Below, piece after piece: positions 3,632-62,142 of a stretch of DNA of 64,000 nucleotides. The notes beneath the pieces are model-generated. The model was not told the origin of the DNA and made no database searches. It saw only the letters and a program-made list of their open reading frames with translations. The DNA lies in the NCBI GenBank assembly GCA_964572275.1, contig CAZNED010000001.1:5513-69512 (forward strand), given 5' to 3'. Position 1 is the first letter of the stretch. Each line of letters begins with the position of its first letter. Position numbers and translations under genes: made by a program. The stretch comes from an uncultured Candidatus Saccharibacteria bacterium (GTDB taxonomy: Bacteria; Patescibacteriota; Minisyncoccia; Minisyncoccales; UBA1441).

Positions 3632-5035
3632 ATGATTTTAGAGAATAGATCAGATAATCCTCTATACTTTCTCGAAACTTTTGGTTGTCAGATGAACATA
3701 TCTGATTCTGAACGCATTGCAGGATTATTAGAAAAAAAAGGTTATGTCCACACAAATGAAATATGGAAAGCTGATTTGATACTGGTTAATATGTGTTCGA
3801 TCAGAAAATCAGCTGTGCACCGCGTGCATGGATTAGTGCAGATGATAATTAAATTAAAAAAAAATAAGCAAGAGTTAAAATCAATATTAACAGGTTGCTT
3901 CTTGAATCACCCAGAGCAAAAATCTTTTCTTAAAACTTTTGATATAGTTTGTAAGATAGATGAATTATTTGAAGCAAACGCACATTATTTGCTGTCAAAA
4001 CCAAAAAATCTGTCCCCATTCCAAGCATATGTTCCTATAATGACTGGGTGTAATAATTTTTGCACATATTGCGTAGTTCCCTATACTCGCGGAAGAGAAT
4101 ATAGCCGCCCCGCTCAAGAAATAATTGAAGAAATAAAATCATTAATTCAACGCGGATTTAAAGAAATTTGGCTTTTAGGGCAGAATGTGAACAGTTATCA
4201 GGATTTATCGAATGATTTTGTTATCGATTTTGCCCTCTTATTAAGCAAAATTAACAATCTACATGGAGATTTTTGGCTATACTTTACATCTTCCCATCCA
4301 AAAGATTTCTCAGATCGCGTTATCAAGGTTATGGCTAAATCTAAAAAAATAGCTCCATATCTCAATCTTCCCGTGCAATCAGGAGATAAACATATTCTGA
4401 ACAAGATGAACCGATCTTATACTCCAAATGATTATATGAAGAAAATAAAGAAAGTTCGTGATGCTTTTCAACAACATCGTATTGGGCTGGAATCAAAAAT
4501 AGCAATATCAACAGATATTATTGTTGGGTTTCCAGGAGAAAATAAATGGCGTTTTTTAAAAACCGGTTATTTAATGAAAAAAATTGGTTTTGATATGGCC
4601 TACATCTCTCGATATTCTCCCCGCCCATTTACAGTGGCAGGATCGTTGCATGATAATGTTTCAAATAAAGAAAAAGGGCGGCGTGAAAAAATATTAAATA
4701 ACATTCTAAAAAAGACAGCTCTAAAAAATAATCAATTTTATATTAATAGCATACTGCCTGTTTTAATTATTGAGATGCACAAATCAGAAAAATATCTAAT
4801 CGGAAGATCTCGAGCTCATAAGAAAGTTAAAGTCAAGAGTAATCATAGAGATTTGATTGGTCAAATAGTAAATGTTCATATAATCAATGCACATCCTTGG
4901 GGATTATTTGGCGATATATGGAGCAAGGGGCTTGTCTCTACCTCAGAACAAGCCCCCTCTACCCACTCATCAATCGGACGATTGTCACGATCGCCGTCAG
5001 GATGCCCACTTTCACGATTGCTCCGACAGAGATAG
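3632..5035 (+). CDS. miaB: tRNA methylthiotransferase MiaB-like (radical SAM); last ~38 codons read into a GC-rich island
   Basis: FGCQMNISDSE N-terminal motif, radical-SAM CNNFCTYCVVP, TRAM-like C-terminus, adjacent to miaA. From ~4921 the ORF runs antisense through the neighbour's terminator and 3' end. Confidence 0.8.
   Translation: MILENRSDNPLYFLETFGCQMNISDSERIAGLLEKKGYVHTNEIWKADLILVNMCSIRKSAVHRVHGLVQMIIKLKKNKQELKSILTGCFLNHPEQKSFLKTFDIVCKIDELFEANAHYLLSKPKNLSPFQAYVPIMTGCNNFCTYCVVPYTRGREYSRPAQEIIEEIKSLIQRGFKEIWLLGQNVNSYQDLSNDFVIDFALLLSKINNLHGDFWLYFTSSHPKDFSDRVIKVMAKSKKIAPYLNLPVQSGDKHILNKMNRSYTPNDYMKKIKKVRDAFQQHRIGLESKIAISTDIIVGFPGENKWRFLKTGYLMKKIGFDMAYISRYSPRPFTVAGSLHDNVSNKEKGRREKILNNILKKTALKNNQFYINSILPVLIIEMHKSEKYLIGRSRAHKKVKVKSNHRDLIGQIVNVHIINAHPWGLFGDIWSKGLVSTSEQAPSTHSSIGRLSRSPSGCPLSRLLRQR
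4927..4956 (-). terminator. Perfect 9-bp GC-rich hairpin directly after the stop of the 4959..5405 gene
   Basis: GGGGCTTGT (4927-4935) / ACAAGCCCC (4948-4956) with a 12-nt loop, 2 nt from the TAG stop. The downstream U-tract on the minus strand is weak (ttgctcc). Confidence 0.5.
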
Positions 5036-5405
5036 CGATCGACGCACGGACACTCTTCGTAGCGACCGCATAGAAGATCGTCCCGGCAGTCACATATGGG
5101 ACGAATGGTATCAGATTCAGTAAGAAGATAATCACATACTTGTATCGATATCTTCTCAAGTATTCTACCATTCGCCGCCCATTACCCTCCTGGTGTGCCA
5201 AAGCCATGTCGATGCGCTTCTTGATGACGGACGAGACTCCCAGTTTCTGGCTCATAAAGACCAAAAACGCGGAAATCACTATCGGTGCCACTGAGTTGAT
5301 TATGGCTGACCCGATGGTCAACAGCATTGGCTCCCACGATCCTCCCTGAGATACTTGGGAGCATAGCCACACATCTGGCACAAAGTACCAGGCAATCCAC
5401 CCCAT
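4959..5405 (-). CDS. GC-rich island A: 148-aa multi-pass membrane protein, possibly small multidrug-export (COG2426/PF06695)-like
   Basis: ATG is preceded by AAGGAGG (5412-5418) at 6-nt spacing. Hydrophobic segments are present, and IPFVPYVTAGTIFYAVATKSVRASIAISVGAIV resembles the IPLPGTGAWTG core of that family. The family assignment is weak. Confidence 0.6.
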   Translation of the reverse strand: MGWIAWYFVPDVWLCSQVSQGGSWEPMLLTIGSAIINSVAPIVISAFLVFMSQKLGVSSVIKKRIDMALAHQEGNGRRMVEYLRRYRYKYVIIFLLNLIPFVPYVTAGTIFYAVATKSVRASIAISVGAIVKVGILTAIVTIVRLMSG

Positions 5406-5440
5406 AGCTCGCCTCCTTATGCTGTCCCGATCCTAATTTT

Positions 5441-5468
5441 ATTCTATAATAAAAGATGATGTCGTCAA
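5441..5468 (-). promoter_or_regulatory. sigma70-like promoter for island A gene (TTGACG-16-TAGAAT)
   Basis: On the minus strand, TTGACG at 5468-5463 and TAGAAT at 5446-5441. The -35 overlaps the first codons of divergent miaA. Confidence 0.45.
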
Positions 5469-14693: not shown

Positions 14694-15594
14694 AAGAAAT
14701 TAAAATTTGTTCTAACGCTAGACGTTTATTTAAGCTTGCACCTCTATACTTTGAACTTATCTCTTCAATTTGTTCAACAATATTAACTATTCTATTCAAG
14801 TCATATTGTGGAAATATATTCTGATAAATTTTTAATTTAAAAACATGGGTCAACAAGGCAGCCCGCCAATAGACTAACCATATTTCTAGAATGATTGATA
14901 TATCTTCTTGTTTGGCTAAACGTTCTGCAATTTGGAACCTGTCTCCTAAAGATCTTTCCTGCAATCCTTGAATGGATTGCCACTCTAGCATCTTATCTTT
15001 AATCATTTCCGGATGGTTTCTCAATTCTACCATATAATCAATGCACCCATGCCCGATTAAAGCAATTATTTCGGCGCTATTCTGATCACTACCCTGTCCT
15101 ATCAACCAATCAACTGACCCTTGAAAGCCCCATGCTGGAAAAGAAACTATCTGGCAACGAGAACTTATAGTTGACCTTAGGGAATTAAGATTATTACTCA
15201 ACAGAATAAAAATCGTTCTATTTTTTGGTTCTTCTAGCACCTTAAGCAAAGCATCCTGAGCATAAATATTCATTGTCTGGGCATTGTGAATAACAATAAC
15301 CTGATATTCTTGATTGCCTAATTTGAGATCCGTACGATGCTTAATATCTCGAATCTGATCAATGCTGATAATTTGTGATTTATTATCTTCGGAAACATTT
15401 GGATGGATCCGCCAAGAATAAAAGTTTTCTCCATTTTTTTGATTCTCCCGTAACTGCCCAATAAACCACTCGGAAATCTTCTCTTTCCCGGCACCAGGTT
15501 CTCCCGTAAATAAATAAGCATGCGATAATCGGTTGAGCGATATCTCTTGCCTTAAGAATTCTTGTTGTTTATCGAAAGGCATTAATTTATTCAT
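14680..15594 (-). CDS. holB: DNA polymerase III delta' subunit
   Basis: HAYLFTGEPGAGKE Walker A-like motif, LLKVLEEP, SRCQ motifs. Confidence 0.85.
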   Translation of the reverse strand: MNKLMPFDKQQEFLRQEISLNRLSHAYLFTGEPGAGKEKISEWFIGQLRENQKNGENFYSWRIHPNVSEDNKSQIISIDQIRDIKHRTDLKLGNQEYQVIVIHNAQTMNIYAQDALLKVLEEPKNRTIFILLSNNLNSLRSTISSRCQIVSFPAWGFQGSVDWLIGQGSDQNSAEIIALIGHGCIDYMVELRNHPEMIKDKMLEWQSIQGLQERSLGDRFQIAERLAKQEDISIILEIWLVYWRAALLTHVFKLKIYQNIFPQYDLNRIVNIVEQIEEISSKYRGASLNKRLALEQILISFDYA

Positions 15595-16598
15595 CTCCCT
15601 CCGACAATACTTTTTTTATAAAGATCTAAATTATCTAACACCATTCCTAATCCTTTAATTACGCACAATAATGGCTCTTCGGCAACAAAAGTTGGCACCT
15701 TTACTCTCTCAGCAATAAAACGATCAATATCTGTCAATAATGCGCCTCCGCCAGCCAAGATAATACCCTTATTCATTATATCAGCCGATAATTCAGGGGG
15801 AGTATCCCTTAAAACGCTTCTAATAGATCTAGCAATCTCTTCTAAAACCTCACTAATCGCTTCTTGTATTTCATTTGATGAAATCTTAATATCTCGAGGT
15901 AAGCCGCTGGCAATATCTCGACCACGAATATCTAGAAATCTTTCTTTCTTTTCTTTTTTCGCAATACCAATCTTTTTCTTTGCCTCTTCAGCCGTCTGAA
16001 TACCTGTAGCCAAATTATATTTATCCTTAATATATGCGATAATTGCTTCATCCATTTTATCTCCACCGACACGCGTCGAAGCACATGTAACAATTCCTCC
16101 TAAGGATATAACCGCCACCTCTGATGTTCCTCCGCCAATATCAACAATCATATGACCAGAACAAGAATCTATCGGAATACCAGCCCCTAAAGCCGATAAA
16201 ATCGGCTCCTTAGCGATATAAGCTCTTCTCGCGCCAACACTTAAAGCAGCTTCTACGACGGCTCTTCTCTCAGCCGATGATATGTCAGCTGGTACTGAAA
16301 TAACTAATTCTGGCTTTATGAAGCTAATAGATCCTCCTGATTTATCAATAAAATACTTTATCATTGATTGAGTCACTCTGTAATCAGCGATCACGCCATC
16401 GCGTAATGGACGATAAATACGAATGCTTCCCGGAGTTCGGCCAATCATTTGTTTGGCTTCTAATCCTACTGCCAATACTCTGTTATTTTCAGGAGTAACG
16501 GCGACAACCGATGGTTCATTAATAACAATACCCTTCTTTGGTACCAGAACTAATGAATTAGCCGTTCCTAGATCAATAGCAATTTTACGCGAAAACAT
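15591..16598 (-). CDS. mreB: Rod shape-determining protein MreB (paralog 2)
   Basis: DLGTANSLVLV, NEPSVVAV, DIGGGTSEVAVISLGG. Clearly paralogous to 10548..11597. Confidence 0.92.
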   Translation of the reverse strand: MFSRKIAIDLGTANSLVLVPKKGIVINEPSVVAVTPENNRVLAVGLEAKQMIGRTPGSIRIYRPLRDGVIADYRVTQSMIKYFIDKSGGSISFIKPELVISVPADISSAERRAVVEAALSVGARRAYIAKEPILSALGAGIPIDSCSGHMIVDIGGGTSEVAVISLGGIVTCASTRVGGDKMDEAIIAYIKDKYNLATGIQTAEEAKKKIGIAKKEKKERFLDIRGRDIASGLPRDIKISSNEIQEAISEVLEEIARSIRSVLRDTPPELSADIMNKGIILAGGGALLTDIDRFIAERVKVPTFVAEEPLLCVIKGLGMVLDNLDLYKKSIVGGR

Positions 16599-16608
16599 AT
16601 TTTTAATA

Positions 16609-17871
16609 TTATTCTTTAATACGCTGGATATCCGCCCCTAATTTATTCAAACGATCTTCTATCTTAAAATATCCTCGGTCAATTTGATTAACTCCTTCTA
16701 TCACAGTTGTACCTTCGGCCATAAGAGCCGCTACCACTAAAGCTGCGCCCGCTCTTATGTCGCTAGATTCGATAGTAACACCCACTAAAGGAGTCGGACC
16801 GAAAACAAAAGCTCTATGAGGATCGACCATTTCAATATCTCCTCCCATTTTGCGAAGTTCGTTCGTATACCTCAATCTATTCTCATAAAGAGGATCATGA
16901 ATCAAGCTTTTACCCGATGCTTGAGTTAAGAGGGGGACTGCTAATGGCAATAAATCCGTCGGAAATCCAGGATAGGGCAATGCCTGTAATTTCAATGATT
17001 TGAGATTAGGTGAATGTCTGACCAATAAAGAATCAGCCTCTACCTCAAAATCTACACCCAATTTCTCCATCTTAGCCAAGAATAAAGTCAAATGTTCCGG
17101 GATCACATCTTTTATAATAACTGTCCCTGGCGTGACAGCTGCCGCCGATAAGAACGTACCCGCCTCTAATGGATCAGGGATAATACGATGTTTGACTCCA
17201 TTTAATTTAGGAACACCCTTGATTTTAATGTCATGAGTCCCTACCCCCTCTATTTGCGCTCCCATATTCTGAAGCATTTTACCTAAATCTTGAACCTGCG
17301 GTTCAGCGGCAACTCCTTTTAAAATAGTTTCACCCGGTGTTAAAACTGCTGCTAGTATAAGATTTTCTGTAGCCGTAACGCTAAATTCCTGGAGAACAAC
17401 TCTCCCGCCTCTTAAATTATCTCCTTTGAAATAATAAAAATCACCTTCCTGTCTAAATTCAGCACCTAATTCTTCCAATGCCTCCAAATGCGTACTGATT
17501 GGTCTCAATCCGATACTGTCCCCGCCTGGTCTGATAATACGGAAAGATTTTAATCTAGCCAATAAAGCGCCAATAAATAGAACCGATAAACGCGTTCGAC
17601 GTGCTCTATCAAAATCCATTTTTTCAGGATCGAGAGAAATGTTTTTTGTTTTTAGAGTAGTAGAATCAAGCCATTCTGTTTTCAATCCTAATCCTTCCAA
17701 GACTCCGATAACATCTAGGATATCATCTATTAAGGGAATATTCTCTATAATGCACTCTTCATCTGTCAGCAATGTTGCCGTTAAAATTGCCCCTGCAGCA
17801 TTTTTATAACCATTAGTAATAATCTCTCCTTCTAAAGGCTTTCCGCCATGAATAATAAATTTATCAGGCAT
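16609..17871 (-). CDS. murA: UDP-N-acetylglucosamine 1-carboxyvinyltransferase
   Basis: 420 aa. FIIHGGKPLEGEI, KNAAGAIL, PGFPTDL motifs of the EPSP/MurA fold. Confidence 0.92.
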   Translation of the reverse strand: MPDKFIIHGGKPLEGEIITNGYKNAAGAILTATLLTDEECIIENIPLIDDILDVIGVLEGLGLKTEWLDSTTLKTKNISLDPEKMDFDRARRTRLSVLFIGALLARLKSFRIIRPGGDSIGLRPISTHLEALEELGAEFRQEGDFYYFKGDNLRGGRVVLQEFSVTATENLILAAVLTPGETILKGVAAEPQVQDLGKMLQNMGAQIEGVGTHDIKIKGVPKLNGVKHRIIPDPLEAGTFLSAAAVTPGTVIIKDVIPEHLTLFLAKMEKLGVDFEVEADSLLVRHSPNLKSLKLQALPYPGFPTDLLPLAVPLLTQASGKSLIHDPLYENRLRYTNELRKMGGDIEMVDPHRAFVFGPTPLVGVTIESSDIRAGAALVVAALMAEGTTVIEGVNQIDRGYFKIEDRLNKLGADIQRIKE

Positions 17872-17931: not shown

Positions 17932-17972
17932 GGGAGAGGCCAGGCGCAATTAAGCACCTTTAAGCCTCTCCC
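17932..17972 (-). terminator. GC-rich hairpin plus T-rich tract after island B gene
   Basis: GGGAGAGGC (17932-17940) / GCCTCTCCC (17964-17972) with a 23-nt loop. On the minus strand it is followed by TTCTTTATTT. Confidence 0.5.
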
Positions 17973-17991
17973 AGAACCCAACCCCTTTGTT

Positions 17992-18699
17992 TCAGAGGAG
18001 CCAGCCGGCCGCCATGAAGCGGCCCTCTTGACTGCCCTCTACAACAGATCGCCGATGCGAGAAGAAGAGCGGTCCACCAGCTTGCTCGTCTCGACCACAG
18101 CACGTACACACAGAAGACCATGCGATCTTCTCGATACCCGACCTTGCGAGCACCGATACGATATACGCATGCAAGTCAATCGAGACGAATTCCCCCCCTT
18201 GCGTATGCATGGCTGAAGACCATTCCCCTCTTGTTGCGAGAACTTCGATTTGAGGATGATTCATCGAGAATCGATAGCAGCACGGACGGATCCCCGGCCC
18301 GATCAAGGCTTGCATCTGGCTTGGCGCGAAGCCAAGCCGTTGCATTTCAAGCAGTCCCGCCTGCAATGCCCCCCTCCAGAGAGCATCGAGAGACCCATGG
18401 ACCATGACCAATGCCGGGATTGCTGCAATGTAGACTACCGGACAATCCCCCGGAAGCATCGTCAATGCATGTTGCCGCTCTGTGACAATGATCCCGTCGC
18501 CTCGTTCCATATTGCTCTCGTTGCCCATACAGATACTGGGCACCCCATCTCGACTCGGGAGAAGGTGAGTTCTCCTCCATGGCGCTCCCAGGGCGCGTAG
18601 AAACGCACTCTGCCCGCAGGAATCGTCCTTCATGTTTCCAGCATCGACTGTGCTGAATCCATGCGGAATCCCACTCTCCGGAACCCTGAACAGCCTCAT
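17992..18699 (-). CDS. GC-rich island B: divergent YfiH/PgeF/LACC1-family (DUF152, 'laccase-domain') protein
   Basis: Family motifs seen by eye: HGFSTVDAGNM, DGIIVTE..L..GDCPVV, VHGS...WRG, IGPGIRPCCY, FFSHRRS. The start at 18699 lies 6 nt after AAGGGGGA. About 58% GC (hand count of 18301-18360). Confidence 0.75.
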   Translation of the reverse strand: MRLFRVPESGIPHGFSTVDAGNMKDDSCGQSAFLRALGAPWRRTHLLPSRDGVPSICMGNESNMERGDGIIVTERQHALTMLPGDCPVVYIAAIPALVMVHGSLDALWRGALQAGLLEMQRLGFAPSQMQALIGPGIRPCCYRFSMNHPQIEVLATRGEWSSAMHTQGGEFVSIDLHAYIVSVLARSGIEKIAWSSVCTCCGRDEQAGGPLFFSHRRSVVEGSQEGRFMAAGWLL

Positions 18700-18735
18700 G
18701 CCCATTCCCCCTTACACAGCGAACTAAGATATCCA

Positions 18736-18764
18736 ATTATAAAACATTTGCAATATTTCGTCAA
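18736..18764 (-). promoter_or_regulatory. sigma70-like promoter for island B gene (TTGACG-17-TATAAT)
   Basis: On the minus strand, TTGACG at 18764-18759 and TATAAT at 18741-18736, located in AT-rich DNA. Confidence 0.55.
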
Positions 18765-18766
18765 TA

Positions 18767-18788
18767 CAAAAAATGGCCGTAAGGCCAT
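18767..18788 (-). terminator. Rho-independent terminator of the Cas4-like gene
   Basis: ATGGCC-GTAA/TTAC-GGCCAT hairpin (18773-18788) followed by TTTTTTG on the minus strand. Confidence 0.6.
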
Positions 18789-18808: not shown

Positions 18809-19534
18809 TCAAGAAAAAAGTTGTTTTTTAGATTCACCGTTTTTAATACTTTCCTCGTAATTTCCAATCCTTTCCTTAAAGTCATCCCAACTTACTTGAG
18901 CAGCTCCCACCATGGAACAAACTTCTTTATACTGGCAATATCGGCATTGTGAATTACTTGGCCAATCATTTAAACGTTCTGGGACCTGGTTAGCTTGTAT
19001 CTTCAAACCCAATCTTTCTAGATCATCAAGCAATTTATGGCATAAATCTGTGTCGTATTCTATTAAAAATTCTTTCAGATCTTGAGTATCTTTATTTACG
19101 TAAAGCAGAATCCCCTGTTTTATTTGGAAAAAATGAAGATAGAGTTGAAGTTGATAAATATATTCTTCGGAGGGTTTATTCAAGGTTCTGAAACTCATAC
19201 TATTGATGCTTTTAATATCTACCACATAATCATGATCGTTAACTTGAATCAAGGCATCTGCTCGTCCCGAGATTAAATTATTAGCCGGAATATTAATTTC
19301 ATCTCCTCTTAAAACATTTTGACCGGATAATGCTTTAATAATTAATTCATGAATATAATTTCCGTGATCAAAAAGTCTAAGAATTCTTGGTTCTAAATCT
19401 CGACATGGTGCTTGTTTAAATTTAAAAAAAACGCTTCTGGGACATCGACCAGCATCTGTTACATAAAATCTTTTCTGAGCATAATTATCTCGATTATTTT
19501 CTAAATAGAAATTATCGATGATTTCTTTCAACAT
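18809..19534 (-). CDS. Stand-alone Cas4-like PD-(D/E)XK nuclease with 4-Cys (Fe-S) signature
   Basis: N-terminal Cys (GRCPRSVFF), HGNYIHE, SGRADAL, VVDIKS (D..K), QLQLYL (QxxxY), C-terminal CRYCQYKEVC. Confidence 0.75.
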   Translation of the reverse strand: MLKEIIDNFYLENNRDNYAQKRFYVTDAGRCPRSVFFKFKQAPCRDLEPRILRLFDHGNYIHELIIKALSGQNVLRGDEINIPANNLISGRADALIQVNDHDYVVDIKSINSMSFRTLNKPSEEYIYQLQLYLHFFQIKQGILLYVNKDTQDLKEFLIEYDTDLCHKLLDDLERLGLKIQANQVPERLNDWPSNSQCRYCQYKEVCSMVGAAQVSWDDFKERIGNYEESIKNGESKKQLFS

Positions 19535-48719: not shown

Positions 48720-49298
48720 TTACATAATTTCCTCATCAGGTAGATGATAATCAAATACCTCTTCAGCCGAAGTCCATAGATTTAGTTCATTTTCAGCTTC
48801 AGTCTGATTCTCAGAAGCATGAATAATATTTCGGATTGCTCTTTTCTCACGATTGGCCCGAGCGGCATCATCAATCGAGAAATCACCTCGAATCGTTCCC
48901 GCCTGAGCTTGGGCCGGAGCTGTGTCGCCCACTATCTTCCTAACCATATCAATAGCATGATTGCCACTAACAACCACCTTAACCATTGGTCCGGAAGTTA
49001 AATAATCCAATAGCCAATTACGAGTTAATTGACCAATTTCATAAGGATCATCTAGGTTTAATTCTTTTTTGATATCTAGGCCATATTTTTCATAATTAGC
49101 CGTAGCCTTCTGACCAATCCGCTCCAACCATTCTTTATCCTTGGGATAATGTCGATCAACTTGATCTTTCCGAGCCCAAACCATTTCTAATGAAACAATT
49201 TTTAGGCCTCTTTTTTCAATGCGAGAGATTATTTCTCCGACTAAACCACGTTTAACCCCATCGGGTTTAATTAATACAAGAGTTTTTTCTTCATTCAT
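48720..49298 (-). CDS. ndk: Nucleoside diphosphate kinase (long form with insertion)
   Basis: TLVLIKPDGV, GTIRGDF, NIIHASE (catalytic His). Confidence 0.85.
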   Translation of the reverse strand: MNEEKTLVLIKPDGVKRGLVGEIISRIEKRGLKIVSLEMVWARKDQVDRHYPKDKEWLERIGQKATANYEKYGLDIKKELNLDDPYEIGQLTRNWLLDYLTSGPMVKVVVSGNHAIDMVRKIVGDTAPAQAQAGTIRGDFSIDDAARANREKRAIRNIIHASENQTEAENELNLWTSAEEVFDYHLPDEEIM

Positions 49299-52045: not shown

Positions 52046-52653
52046 TCAGATAAAGATTGTATTATAATCCGATAATCTTTAATTAACGTCGGCTTGAGAT
52101 TGATATTATAAGTAGCCACCGCAGGATGATAGAGCGGAATTATTTTCAGTGAAGATCCATCAAGATTACTAATTTTAAAAACACGAGCTTTCAATAGCGT
52201 AATGCCAGGAATTTTTCCATTTTGGATGGCTTGGTCTTCTAAATGATATTTCCTAATTAAGTAATTCGCTGCGAAATTACCCATGGGGCAAATAATACTT
52301 GGATTTATTATTTCAATTTGACGATCTAAATACGGAACACAGGCAGTAATTTCCTGAGATAGAGGGTTGCGATTATTAGGGGGACGGCATTTGAGAATAT
52401 TTGCGATATAAACATCTGCCCTTTTTAAGCCGATTGCTTCTAAAATTTCAGTTAGGATATTCCCTGCCGCTCCACAAAAAGGACGACCTGTCGCATCTTC
52501 TTGGCGTCCGGGGGCTTCACCAATAAACATAATTTTCGCTCGATGATTACCCTCCCCAATCACCGGGCATTTTCTCGTTTGGCTAAGAGAACATTTGCGA
52601 CAAACGATTACCTCATCTTTGATTTTTTTGAGATTTTGATCACAAAGGTCCAT
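52042..52653 (-). CDS. udg: Uracil-DNA glycosylase, family 4
   Basis: CRKCSL, FIGEAPG..ED, GRPFCGAAG, LYHPA motifs. Overlaps the AMPpase 3' end by 14 nt. Confidence 0.88.
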   Translation of the reverse strand: MDLCDQNLKKIKDEVIVCRKCSLSQTRKCPVIGEGNHRAKIMFIGEAPGRQEDATGRPFCGAAGNILTEILEAIGLKRADVYIANILKCRPPNNRNPLSQEITACVPYLDRQIEIINPSIICPMGNFAANYLIRKYHLEDQAIQNGKIPGITLLKARVFKISNLDGSSLKIIPLYHPAVATYNINLKPTLIKDYRIIIQSLSD

Positions 52654-54157
52654 TACCTTTGTAAATATGATAAATCTTATTTTTCCCTAAGGCTTTTAAA
52701 GCAAAATCCAAGCGAGATTGACTAGTGGCGTAAATAGTGAATAGGACATCTCCTTTTTCTACCGACTCACCCACTAATTTATTCAGATAAGTTCCGGCTT
52801 GTTTAATTGTCGGATTACCAAGAGATCGATTAACCCAGCCCAATGCCTTGTTGTCTATCATGCGGACTGAACCAGTTTCTTCTGCCTTAACTTCATGCAC
52901 GATTCCCCCGATCTTGATAGCCTCTGAATCAATCTTGGGATTACCTCCCTGCGCTTCAATAATTCTTTGCATCTTTTTCCACGCTTTCCCGCTGGATAAA
53001 CATTCTAATGCTTGGCGATGCGCCTCGCTCCCCTTTGCTTTTCCTGTCAATTTTAGCATTTCTGCACAATAGTAAACCGCTTTTTTCTGAAGGTCCATAG
53101 GACGATTCTCTTTTTGTTGTAGAACCCTAAGCACATCTCGAGCTTCCAAAGCCGGACCAATTCCCCGACCTATCGGTCCAAAAGAGGCATAGAAGATAAC
53201 TTTAATCTTCATGTCAAACAATTTGCCAAGGGTCAGGAAGAGTTTTTCTATCTCGTATGCTTCTTCCAAAGACTTGACTTTGGCTGTTGGATTAATAGGA
53301 ATATCGACTAATAAATATTTGACATGCATGGCTGCCTTCTTAGCCATGATACTTGTTACCAATTTACTGAATGGTTCAACTGGTAATTCATTTGCGATCT
53401 CAATAATGCGATCATCTGCCGGAGCAATACCATCCGCTCCCCAAACTAAAAATGCGTTATTCTTAGCTAACAATTGCTTTAATTCTGAAGGTGAAAAACT
53501 AACTGGAGCTAATACTTCAAAGGTATCAGCTGTTCCGGCCGGTGAAGTAACTGCCCGCGAAGATGTCTTGGGTATTGTCAATCCTAGGGCGCTTACAATC
53601 GCAACTATGATGGGCGTAATTCTGTTCCCGGCCAATCCTCCAGTCGAATGTTTATCAACGATCATCTGATCACCAAAATCAAATTGATCACCTGTTTCAA
53701 CCATAGCCTTAGTAAGATGGTACAATTCTTTATCGGAAATGCTACTGAAAAATACTTTTGACAAATAGAAAGCTATAACAGCATCGTCTAAGCGCGAATT
53801 GACTATATCTCGTATGATTGACAAAGTTTCCTCATAATCTAACTCTTCACCCTGAAGTCTTTTAGCAATATATTTTACTGATTCTGGTGTTCCTAACAAT
53901 TGAATTTTAATTAATTCAGCATTTTTAATCTTGGTCTTCTTTTTGAAATCATTACATAGCCCAATTTGACCAGGTTTAATAAGCGTACTCGTTAAATTGA
54001 CTGAAACTACTATCGGAGCACCTCCTTTCCAACCCAAGATGAGGCGATCTTTATCGCGAATATCATGGTCATTGGCATCACGTCGATGCAAATAAACAGC
54101 CAATTCGTCGCCTGTTTGGACATCTACGAATTCCGATCTTAATTTAAAAATAATCAT
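52640..54157 (-). CDS. deoA: AMP phosphorylase (archaeal-type thymidine phosphorylase family with N-terminal extension)
   Basis: 505 aa. KHSTGGLAGN, TSSRAVTSPAGTAD, plus the ~85-aa N-terminal domain typical of AMPpase. Context: next to RuBisCO and R15P isomerase. Confidence 0.85.
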   Translation of the reverse strand: MIIFKLRSEFVDVQTGDELAVYLHRRDANDHDIRDKDRLILGWKGGAPIVVSVNLTSTLIKPGQIGLCNDFKKKTKIKNAELIKIQLLGTPESVKYIAKRLQGEELDYEETLSIIRDIVNSRLDDAVIAFYLSKVFFSSISDKELYHLTKAMVETGDQFDFGDQMIVDKHSTGGLAGNRITPIIVAIVSALGLTIPKTSSRAVTSPAGTADTFEVLAPVSFSPSELKQLLAKNNAFLVWGADGIAPADDRIIEIANELPVEPFSKLVTSIMAKKAAMHVKYLLVDIPINPTAKVKSLEEAYEIEKLFLTLGKLFDMKIKVIFYASFGPIGRGIGPALEARDVLRVLQQKENRPMDLQKKAVYYCAEMLKLTGKAKGSEAHRQALECLSSGKAWKKMQRIIEAQGGNPKIDSEAIKIGGIVHEVKAEETGSVRMIDNKALGWVNRSLGNPTIKQAGTYLNKLVGESVEKGDVLFTIYATSQSRLDFALKALGKNKIYHIYKGNGPL

Positions 54158-59547: not shown

Positions 59548-59769
59548 ATGGTGTGCAGGAAATGTCCTCAGTGTGGGTACATCGCGAGTAGTGCCGATAC
59601 GCGACCATGGACATGCTCAAAGTGCGGGGCGAAGATCTCGGAGCGAGACGATCTCCCTCCGAGCAAAACTCCGGGATGGGTTCCGAGTCGGCGAGGGGGA
59701 GGGCCCGCTAAGCCACCCGTACGGAAGGGTCATCCTTCTCACAAGTGGAATCCGCCATCGCGTCGATAA
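59548..59769 (+). CDS. GC-rich island C: 73-aa zinc-ribbon protein with Pro/Arg-rich tail
   Basis: CRKCPQCG...CSKCG (CxxCxxC...CxxC), a strong SD, GC-rich codons, and a hairpin after the stop. Confidence 0.6.
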   Translation: MVCRKCPQCGYIASSADTRPWTCSKCGAKISERDDLPPSKTPGWVPSRRGGGPAKPPVRKGHPSHKWNPPSRR

Positions 59770-59779
59770 GAAGGTTCCG

Positions 59780-59809
59780 GGAGGGGCGAGCCGTTGGCTC
59801 GCTCCTTTT
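59780..59809 (+). terminator. Rho-independent terminator of island C gene
   Basis: GGAG(GG)GCGAGCC-GTT-GGCTCGCTCC followed by TTTTCC. Confidence 0.65.
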
Positions 59810-59813
59810 CCAT

Positions 59814-60104
59814 TTAATTGCTTGTTTGAAAACCAATTTCTTGATTTTTTTCGGCAATATCATCTATTTTACCGAATTTCTCCTCGTACAATTTCAAACT
59901 ATTTTGAAAAGCAATAATCATCTGTTTAAGATGCTTCGGAGAAGTGATAATTCGAGCCGTAACAATACCTTGGGGTGGTGTAATATGAGCAAAGTCCAAG
60001 ACAAAAGCCTCTTGATTATAAGAGACTTTCATGGCATTGGCATAAGATCCTTTTAATTGATCATCATTAATTTTAAGCCTAATTTCTTGAGGTTGTTGAT
60101 TCAT
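59814..60104 (-). CDS. DUF3467-family protein
   Basis: GSYANAMKVSYNQEAFVLDFAHI....ARIITSPKHLKQMIIAFQNSLKLYEEKFGKI matches my recollection of the DUF3467 consensus. Confidence 0.65.
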   Translation of the reverse strand: MNQQPQEIRLKINDDQLKGSYANAMKVSYNQEAFVLDFAHITPPQGIVTARIITSPKHLKQMIIAFQNSLKLYEEKFGKIDDIAEKNQEIGFQTSN

Positions 60105-61836: not shown

Positions 61837-61883
61837 AAAAGAATCTTCCCCCACCTAGCCAGGAACACCCGACCAGATGGGGG
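61837..61883 (-). terminator. Strand-specific GC-rich hairpin after island D gene
   Basis: 13-bp stem, 61848-61860 with 61871-61883. Its three non-Watson-Crick positions are G-U on the minus-strand RNA but C-A on the plus strand. A UUUU tract follows after 7 nt. Confidence 0.45.
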
Positions 61884-61903
61884 AAACACGGTGCACCCAG
61901 TTC

Positions 61904-62095
61904 CTACTGGGGTCGCAGAGGATTTTCGTCATCCTCGAGCTTCTCCTTGGGGATGATCGTCTCCTCGAACACCTCGAGACGATAATCTCCGCTCGGAGCA
62001 TATCCGACGACTCGCGCCTTGAACTTCTGGACGCAGATGCCGTCAGCTTCGTCCTTTTGGACCAGAACTGTCCCCACCGGATACTTCCACGTCAT
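61904..62095 (-). CDS. GC-rich island D: 63-aa soluble protein, unknown function
   Basis: The ATG at 62095 lies 5 nt after GAGGTGA (62107-62101). Beta-rich sequence MTWKYPVGTVLVQKDEADGICVQKFKARVVGY... No family recognised. Confidence 0.5.
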   Translation of the reverse strand: MTWKYPVGTVLVQKDEADGICVQKFKARVVGYAPSGDYRLEVFEETIIPKEKLEDDENPLRPQ

Positions 62096-62114
62096 GATCA
62101 TCACCTCAAGATTT

Positions 62115-62142
62115 ATATTACAATATCTGCATAATTTGTCAA
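62115..62142 (-). promoter_or_regulatory. sigma70-like promoter for island D gene (TTGACA-16-TAATAT)
   Basis: On the minus strand, TTGACA at 62142-62137 and TAATAT at 62120-62115. Confidence 0.5.

Follow-up and report, generated by a model that had tools for sequence, protein, structure and literature searches.

Enzymes of the YfiH/PgeF/YlmD/LACC1 family (PF02578; formerly DUF152 or Cu-oxidase_4) include E. coli YfiH/PgeF (PDB 1Z9T, 7F3V and 7W1G; TIGR00726), YlmD and YfiH of Bacillus and Geobacillus (PDB 1T8H, 6T0Y/6T1B, 6DZD and 7FBG), and the C-terminal domain of human LACC1/FAMIN, in which the catalytic Cys (C284) is conserved. In Firmicutes, the YlmD/YfiH genes are located in the division/cell-wall cluster. 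The current description of the family active site has an Asp-Cys-His catalytic triad together with His71 (PMC8844914, PMC12280929). In E. coli PgeF, editing depends on each of D89, D106, C107 and H124, and the substrate is bound by R235 and R228 (PMC12280929; PMC8844914), Arg228 contacting the uracil and ribose and Arg235 the carboxylate of the first amino acid (PMC8844914, PMC12280929). His71 is likewise essential for editing in E. coli (PMC12280929), and E. coli YfiH cleaves N-acetylmuramic acid (MurNAc)-L-Ser without uridine diphosphate (UDP) as well (PMC8844914). Purine nucleoside activities have been reported for LACC1/FAMIN (PMC6978800), which has no peptidoglycan editing activity (PMC12280929). 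Here we describe a gene of this family that forms a GC-rich island in a 64,000-nt stretch of DNA (contig CAZNED010000001.1, positions 5,513 to 69,512; hereafter the window) from an uncultured Candidatus Saccharibacteria bacterium. We consider it probable that this YfiH-like gene is an ancient, vertically inherited insertion at a gene-specific guanine-plus-cytosine (GC) equilibrium, and that it encodes a divergent, fast-evolving PgeF-like Cys amidase with a remodelled substrate groove.

The open reading frame (ORF) of the YfiH-like gene occupies 17992..18705 on the minus strand and counts 237 amino acids (aa) from its first ATG. The true start is probably the second ATG at 18699, which gives 235 aa; this start was favoured because the Shine-Dalgarno sequence AAGGGGGA touches the first ATG but precedes the second by 7 nt. 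The database protein P0001, identical to the window protein, is called from 18699 too. GC content averages 38% over the window and reaches 51-63% between about 17935 and 18725, with sharp edges at which GC passes from 0.24-0.29 outside to 0.51-0.63 inside, and back, within about 50-100 nt at both ends. The GC rise coincides with the ORF 17992..18705. A sequence-only reading of the window had described this as the largest GC-rich island, with a 235-aa product. The ORF is the top compositional outlier among the 78 non-overlapping window ORFs: its GC is 0.569 (mean of the ORFs 0.386, sd 0.043) and its third-codon-position GC (GC3) 0.61 (mean 0.318, sd 0.064). At four-fold degenerate sites, GC is 0.60 in the YfiH-like gene and 0.25-0.31 in the flanking genes, and the codon repertoire differs from the flanks as well, TTA being used for Leu in 0 of 21 cases against 50 of 108. 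Independent assemblies carry the same island, with nucleotide identities of 99.85% and 89%, which rules out an assembly chimera. Nor is the GC peak explained by a tRNA or other structured RNA, as the island gave no Rfam match at gathering score (a single chance-level match, E = 0.87) and no tRNA lies nearby.

The island is a self-contained transcription unit with its own promoter, Shine-Dalgarno sequence, 235-aa coding sequence (CDS) and terminator. Its features are as follows.

18736..18764, minus strand: sigma-70-like promoter of the YfiH-like gene (TTGACG, 17-nt spacer, TATAAT; 11 of 12 consensus positions; consensus scan)
18706..18713, minus strand: Shine-Dalgarno sequence, upstream of the second ATG (read from the sequence)
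17992..18705, minus strand: YfiH/PgeF-family CDS (ORF, PF02578, AlphaFold2 model, residue mapping)
18226..18585, minus strand: central CDS segment, codons 41-160, with excess synonymous divergence from the sister lineage L001
17922..17972, minus strand: intrinsic terminator of the YfiH-like gene, a 16-bp GC-rich hairpin followed by UUCUUUAUUU, forming the 3′ edge of the GC island

The limits of 17932-18764 given for the island by the sequence-only reading thus fall very close to the foot of the terminator hairpin and to the -35 box. The terminator folds with a centroid energy of -30.8 kcal/mol (z = -3.1), and none of 200 shuffled sequences folds as well. The unit is set between the following neighbours, of which murA and mreB had already been recognized from the sequence alone and were confirmed with Pfam.

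18809..19534, minus strand: PD-(D/E)XK / Cas4-like nuclease gene, upstream neighbour and syntenic anchor (PF12705 and PF01930 matches)
18767..18788, minus strand: terminator of the upstream PD-(D/E)XK gene (AUGGCC-UUAC-GGCCAU plus U-run; terminator scan; fold z = -2.75)
16609..17871, minus strand: murA (UDP-N-acetylglucosamine 1-carboxyvinyltransferase), downstream neighbour (PF00275, 271 bits), with its own conserved promoter region
15591-16598: mreB (Pfam match)

The nuclease-gene terminator separates the PD-(D/E)XK gene from the YfiH-like transcription unit, and is followed in order by the promoter, a short 5′ untranslated region (5′UTR), the Shine-Dalgarno sequence, the CDS, the hairpin terminator, the murA promoter region and murA. 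The nuclease gene itself stands directly after the rpoA-rplQ-rplM-rpsI block; it scores 49 bits on TIGR00372, short of the 65 required, and a CRISPR context was not seen.

The same slot, with rpsI, the PD-(D/E)XK nuclease gene, a YfiH-like gene, murA and mreB, was found in nine other loci (L001, L003, L007, L008, L009, L010, L011, L012 and L013) that represent eight distinct lineages. Genomic look-up of the best protein matches placed P0002, P0006, P0007 and P0008 between the same nuclease gene and murA. A nuclease-anchored scan of GTDB species representatives yielded five more genomes with the slot occupied, all with rpsI, nuclease gene, YfiH-like gene, murA, mreB and holB in that order and labelled Candidatus Saccharibacteria, Patescibacteria group bacterium UBA1441 or bacterium; the nuclease-anchored metagenome scan added only L012-type duplicates and truncated loci. 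MurA is 77-99% identical across this clade. The nuclease is 74-97% identical within it and 54-63% identical in outgroups. In the outgroups L021 and L022, MurA is 64-65% identical and the whole rpoA-to-proS backbone is retained; the slot of L022 is empty, with a 149-nt spacer, and that of L021 holds three unrelated genes.

The regulatory signals of the island are shared by its relatives. The -35/-10 pair and the following ATATCTTAGTTCG block of the 5′UTR are kept in place in most of the 8 alignable lineages, in which the YfiH-like ORF itself falls to 27-52% identity, almost beyond nucleotide recognition. The Shine-Dalgarno position reads AAGGAGG or GAGGGG in the relatives, and all of them have a hairpin of differing sequence plus a T-run at the position of the YfiH-like gene terminator. 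The stem of the nuclease terminator is maintained despite sequence changes, and the block upstream of murA, TTTATTTGCG...TTTTAAGATAAGATTA, is conserved in most lineages.

The nuclease-murA slot appears to be an insertion hot spot, and single-gene GC-rich islands appear to recur in these genomes. One of the genes in the L021 slot (GCA_041643235.1, JBGGGZ010000012.1; 3727-4350) encodes a 207-aa Trp-rich membrane protein without a Pfam match and is itself a sharp GC island (GC 0.51, GC3 0.62; locus GC 0.378); next to it are genes for a methylpurine-DNA glycosylase and a beta-propeller-like protein. In the list of MurA homologs, identity falls abruptly from at least 77% in the clade to at most 65% outside it, where the nearest matches bear Parcubacteria-type names (Staskawiczbacteria, Gribaldobacteria and Nealsonbacteria). 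As three genomes of the clade are labelled Candidatus Saccharibacteria, the class to which the window organism belongs is uncertain.

The sequence-only reading held the island to be foreign DNA. In the form of a recent horizontal acquisition from a GC-rich donor, un-ameliorated and adding a new function to a reduced genome, this would account for a composition that is strongly atypical at all codon positions, for the sharp borders, and for the absence of the gene from the same slot in L022. However, the gene occupies that slot in all ten clade loci between conserved regulatory flanks and is absent only from outgroups with a MurA identity of about 65%, and synonymous sites are saturated between the lineages (see below). 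A word-index protein search returned one 86%-identical protein and nothing else above 34%, and an exhaustive HMMER scan of 1.84 billion representatives gave three matches below 1e-30. The HMMER matches with E < 1e-25 were the self-match and syntenic orthologs only, all others being at most about 35% identical, and the nearest outgroup proteins are mostly of low-to-moderate-GC amino-acid composition. Repeats flanking the island were short and at chance level, no mobility genes were found near it, the nearest tRNA is 10 kb away, and the searches for plasmid and phage relatives gave no match and one weak match (30% identity), respectively; on these grounds a mobile-element origin was dropped. Classical genomic islands have a sharp compositional break and a lineage-variable slot in common with this island. 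Unlike them, it consists of a single gene, has no mobility genes, repeats or nearby tRNA, occurs in every clade locus examined along with conserved regulatory signals that look native, and has not been ameliorated in composition despite saturated synonymous divergence. We regard a recent acquisition as extremely improbable. What stands of the foreign-DNA claim is that the gene is an insertion relative to the outgroups; its recency does not stand, as the slot is shared throughout the clade.

In a neighbour-joining tree computed with capped distances and including the 60 best outside matches, the syntenic orthologs formed one group in 146 of 200 bootstraps, together with P0010, P0011 and P0044, whose genomic context is not known. 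Clustering with orthologs of the same AT-rich lineage, which the sequence-only reading had named as contrary to its proposal, was thus the outcome. The pairs of the window with L001 (200/200), L007 with L013 (200/200) and L008 with L010 (102/200) recur in the MurA tree. L003 and L009 pair in the gene tree (182/200) and lie within the MurA group of the window, but are not sisters there; L011 joins L007 and L013 in the gene tree (196/200) and has another position in the MurA tree, which includes only a partial L011 sequence. The gene tree thus seems largely congruent with that of MurA. Because the slot is the same, the signals are conserved, the orthologs group together and largely follow MurA, and the outgroup slots are empty or otherwise filled, this comparative evidence indicates a single, ancient insertion of the gene into the variable nuclease-murA slot in the ancestor of the Patescibacteria clade, followed by vertical descent.

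The YfiH-like protein evolves far faster than its neighbours. Across lineages, the nuclease, MurA and MreB are 74-91% identical (MurA, 77-91%), against 27-52% for the YfiH-like protein, and close pairs behave likewise: the window and L001 share 86% identity in the YfiH-like protein and 99% in MurA, and L007 and L013 share 70% and 94%. Between the window and L003, L007 and L009, nonsynonymous divergence (dN) is 0.64-0.66 for the YfiH-like gene and 0.09-0.12 for MurA. The YfiH-like protein thus evolves 5-7 times faster than MurA. It is under purifying selection despite this speed, with ratios of dN to synonymous divergence (dN/dS) of 0.108 (window and L001) and 0.095 (L007 and L013) in the two measurable pairs. 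The proportion of synonymous differences (pS) between the window and L003, L007 and L009 is at least 0.73 in all three genes compared, that is, saturated, and even between the window and L001 dS is about 0.5, although their MurA proteins are 99% identical.

The GC excess is nonetheless persistent. Overall GC of the YfiH-like gene is above that of the flanks in 9 of the 10 loci (0.475-0.579 against 0.32-0.50), and in most lineages GC is raised at all three codon positions. Four-fold GC is clearly above the flanks in 7 of the 9 tabulated lineages. The difference is largest in the window (about +0.3), followed by L001 and L003 (about +0.2) and then by L007, L008, L009 and L013 (about +0.05 to +0.1); the excess is marginal in L011 and absent in L010. 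Since synonymous sites are saturated between lineages, the GC excess is not an un-ameliorated relic of transfer, and the YfiH-like gene is at its own gene-specific compositional equilibrium. Relaxed constraint as the cause of the high GC was ruled out with holB, which evolves equally fast (40-50% identity) but has a GC of 0.34-0.36 and is among the most AT-rich genes. Amino-acid composition alone was ruled out because four-fold degenerate sites share the excess, and translational selection is unlikely because the enriched codons include GGG, CTC, CGG and AGG.

A recombination hot spot offers a different account of composition and rate. The gene would be a hypervariable cassette swapped whole or in part among relatives, with GC-biased gene conversion raising GC and exchange inflating divergence; such an account is compatible with an amidase function and competes only over composition and rate. 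Recombination is linked to GC3 in bacteria, as the biased gene conversion hypothesis has it. Between the window and L001, the one pair close enough for a test of mosaicism, codons 41-160 have a pS of about 0.60 (50 of 84 synonymous sites), compared with 0.29 towards either end of the gene and 0.365 in its two neighbours (Fisher p = 9e-5), and four-fold sites differ at 23 of 49 in the centre, 11 of 55 at the ends, and 17 of 61 and 38 of 143 in the flanks. Such a mosaic hints at recombination that brought in a segment of a divergent allele. In MurA, L010 shares 91-93% identity with L008 and L012, but in the YfiH-like gene only 32%, the window and L009 share 39% identity against 49% for L003 and L009 although the window is closer in MurA, and the slot is variable in outgroups. 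Against the hot spot, the GC excess ends sharply at the ORF and terminator with no decay into the flanks, the gene tree largely follows MurA, mosaicism is testable in that single pair, and the synonymous excess varies greatly between lineages, from about +0.3 to none. We hold a hot spot of this kind to be possible but rather unlikely.

The L010 ortholog (JAKQBO010000007.1, 1373-2176) is the most divergent of all, with 27-33% identity to all others; it has lost the equivalents of Asp106 and Arg228, and its GC excess is absent. This copy may be decaying or may have been replaced.

Other GC-rich segments of the window were recorded as well. A GC island at 4850-5450 (GC 0.45-0.54), between miaB and miaA, holds a membrane-like ORF of 148 aa (4959-5405, minus strand) without a Pfam match, whose span overlaps miaB at its called 3′ end; in a collection of 5.8 billion proteins, its homologs were identical copies only, from several metagenomes of the same organism. 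A second, at 59550-59850 (GC up to 0.63), holds a 73-aa ORF (59548-59769, plus strand) with two CxxC pairs and weak zinc-ribbon matches, all below cut-off, located between a 927-aa helicase-nuclease-like ORF and a DUF3467 gene. An 86-aa ORF at 61877-62134 (plus strand; GC 0.52) has a GC3 of 0.59, the second highest in the window.

The protein matched PF02578 with 77.4 bits (gathering cut-off 22.9; E = 1.5e-21), aa 63-233 alone aligning to the profile, and an AlphaFold2 model built on 73 relatives reached a predicted local distance difference test score (pLDDT) of 96.4 and a predicted template modelling score (pTM) of 0.92. The 18 best PDB matches of the model in Foldseek were all YfiH/YlmD/PgeF chains (E 6e-16 to 4e-14; template modelling score (TM) 0.74-0.81) at identities of 18-22%, and sequence-level matches to solved structures were weak (E 3e-8 to 4e-3). 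On the predicted model, membership of the YfiH fold is secure, and the divergent YfiH/PgeF/LACC1-family member proposed from the sequence alone is upheld by both the profile and the structure. Against E. coli YfiH/PgeF, the comparison that had been suggested, the fold is shared (Foldseek E about 1e-15, TM 0.77-0.79) at an identity of about 18-20%. The best sequence-level PDB matches were the Bacillus and Geobacillus YlmD and YfiH proteins (E 3e-8 to 1.5e-5), which share the fold and the GPxIxxCCY, CTxC and FFSHRR motifs with the window protein, and do not share the rapid evolution or compositional anomaly of its gene. The CCY and CTCC cysteines of the window protein are absent from E. coli PgeF. 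Human LACC1/FAMIN, a member of the same family, is a vertebrate multidomain protein, unlike the window protein. A second PF02578-family copy was not found in the 64-kb window.

Residue mapping assigned the catalytic triad to Asp70, Cys88 (in GDCP) and His103, equivalent to E. coli Asp89, Cys107 and His124. Asp87 corresponds to Asp106, so that the Asp-Cys turn Asp87-Cys88 is present and the whole set of PgeF triad plus Asp106 is found in the window protein (D70, C88, H103 and D87), and the substrate arginines Arg228 and Arg235 correspond to Arg218 and Arg229. D70, C88, H103, R218 and R229 are among 25 columns invariant across the 10 syntenic orthologs, in which D87 is replaced only in L010. The triad, turn and arginines are thus held in common with E. 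coli PgeF, as is the association with cell-wall precursor genes.

All motifs listed in the sequence-only reading were found (HGFST, GDGIIVT, GDCPV, HGSLDALWRG, IGPGIRPCCY, FFSHRR and SRDG). Of the two it had called altered, the histidine of QVHG is indeed missing; the WRG of HGSLDALWRG is not the canonical HAGWRG and sits four residues further along the helix. In an ungapped alignment, L106 and D107 face E. coli W127 and R128, and W110-R111-G112 face C131-A132-G133, whereas the aligned Bacillus sequences retain the AGWKG form of the motif. Its suggestion that the metal site may differ is right in that His71 is missing, but the metal framing is dated, these residues being an Asp-Cys-His triad plus His71. 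By profile and mapped residues, the protein is a PF02578-fold member that is predicted to be PgeF-like at the catalytic core and falls outside canonical PgeF by equivalog score and by the first His of the His-Cys-His triad.

Several of these departures weigh against an ancient, vertically inherited PgeF-like amidase, as do some features of its history. The TIGR00726 (PgeF equivalog) score is 57.3 bits, below the cut-off of 141.15; the range is 45-76 among clade relatives and 66-147 among Patescibacteria-type homologs at a greater distance. Of the His-Cys-His triad (E. coli H71, C107 and H124), C88 and H103 are invariant and the H71 position is not His. In the window it is taken by Arg52/Asp53, and the clade reads R, V, N, V, N, H, P, V, N and V there, His occurring in L009 only. 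Gln69, the determinant of L-Ser recognition, is replaced by Pro50 and the UDP-diphosphate contacts Trp127/Arg128 by Leu106/Asp107. Tyr227 is His217 in the window protein. As to history, monophyly depends on a neighbour-joining tree of near-saturated distances with 73% bootstrap, and the insertion may stem either from horizontal transfer or from relocation of the lineage's own pgeF. The unexplained fast evolution and GC excess may also point to some other biological role.

The same losses might be read as those of a decaying or non-catalytic remnant, in which PgeF function went with His71 and drift explains the speed. The further groove residues lost, a score far under the equivalog cut-off, and the L010 ortholog, where D106 and R228 are lost too and GC is not raised, would fit. 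We judge a remnant very improbable, in that two independent pairs have a dN/dS of about 0.1, no locus has a broken reading frame, the catalytic triad does not vary, the promoter and Shine-Dalgarno sequence are conserved, and the predicted fold is confident.

In the PgeF-like Cys amidase that we favour, selection has kept the residues that perform cysteine-amidase chemistry in E. coli PgeF (Asp70, Cys88, His103, the Asp87-Cys88 turn, Arg218 and Arg229), and the substrate groove would have been remodelled around them by loss of His71, Gln69 and Trp127/Arg128, with Arg111 conserved nearby. Opposite E. coli Ala132, on the same helix and one helical turn beyond the Trp127/Arg128 site, almost every clade member has kept a basic residue (Arg or Lys; Arg111 in the window), which may be a relocated phosphate contact that substitutes for Arg128. 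Because His71, Gln69 and Trp127/Arg128 are lost, substrate preference, and perhaps UDP dependence, is probably unlike that of canonical PgeF. Reduced UDP dependence is one plausible shift, given that E. coli YfiH acts on the UDP-free substrate too. The enzyme would be an amidohydrolase of the cytoplasm with Cys-His-Asp chemistry, releasing a single amino acid or a short peptide from the MurNAc lactyl group, and its role would be to proofread the MurC step or to carry out a variant of such proofreading. The genomic context is that of the cell wall: murA and mreB are adjacent, and distant homologs on AT-rich contigs, of ordinary GC, lie beside PBP1A (L005) or MraY/MurL/MurD (L014).

A purine nucleoside enzyme of the FAMIN/YlmD type, a phosphorylase or deaminase serving nucleoside/AMP salvage, had been put forward as equally fitting from the sequence alone. 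Family members have such activities in vitro (PMC6978800), and the nucleoside/AMP salvage genes noted in the window are consistent with the annotation: the protein at 52640-54157 is AMP phosphorylase/pyrimidine-nucleoside phosphorylase-like, with Glycos_transf_3 and PYNP_C domains, and a nucleoside diphosphate kinase gene lies at 48720-49298. However, the purine nucleoside phosphorylase (PNP) activity of bacterial homologs is weak, without physiological relevance, and unaffected by loss of H71, C107, H124, D89 or D106 (PMC12280929). D70, C88 and H103 remain invariant while the rest of the protein diverges, which points to selection for Cys-dependent chemistry, and the immediate neighbours are cell-wall rather than salvage genes. 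As the invariant residues are those needed for editing and dispensable for PNP activity, the selected function is most probably that of a cysteine amidase and not purine metabolism; a purine role is improbable, and its standing beside the cell-wall role is reduced to that of a weak alternative.

The function of this gene is probably ordinary; what is unusual is a persistent single-gene GC island with a high rate of evolution in a very conserved neighbourhood. A bolder account, which we consider doubtful, is that a gene-specific GC-raising force (a recombination hot spot with biased gene conversion, or selection acting on codons or mRNA) maintains the island past saturation, that the PgeF homolog, having lost His71 and the UDP contacts, acts on a new substrate, and that such islands are general in these reduced genomes. 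If true, the new substrate could be, for example, MurNAc-peptides that lack UDP or another amino acid at the first position in the cell wall of Patescibacteria, and single-gene GC islands, like those elsewhere in the window and in the L021 slot, would be a widespread trait that has so far gone undescribed.

In annotating reduced genomes, recent transfer cannot be read from a compositional island alone, and here comparative synteny overturns that inference. With regard to genome evolution, a gene whose synonymous GC stands 0.05-0.3 above its neighbours in most lineages even at saturated divergence, and whose protein evolves 5-7 times faster, provides a natural test of biased gene conversion against selection. 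For cell-wall biology, the clade would carry a PgeF-like enzyme that has kept the amidase core and lost a residue essential in E. coli, which bears on how much change the editing mechanism tolerates and on whether a different precursor is proofread in Patescibacteria.

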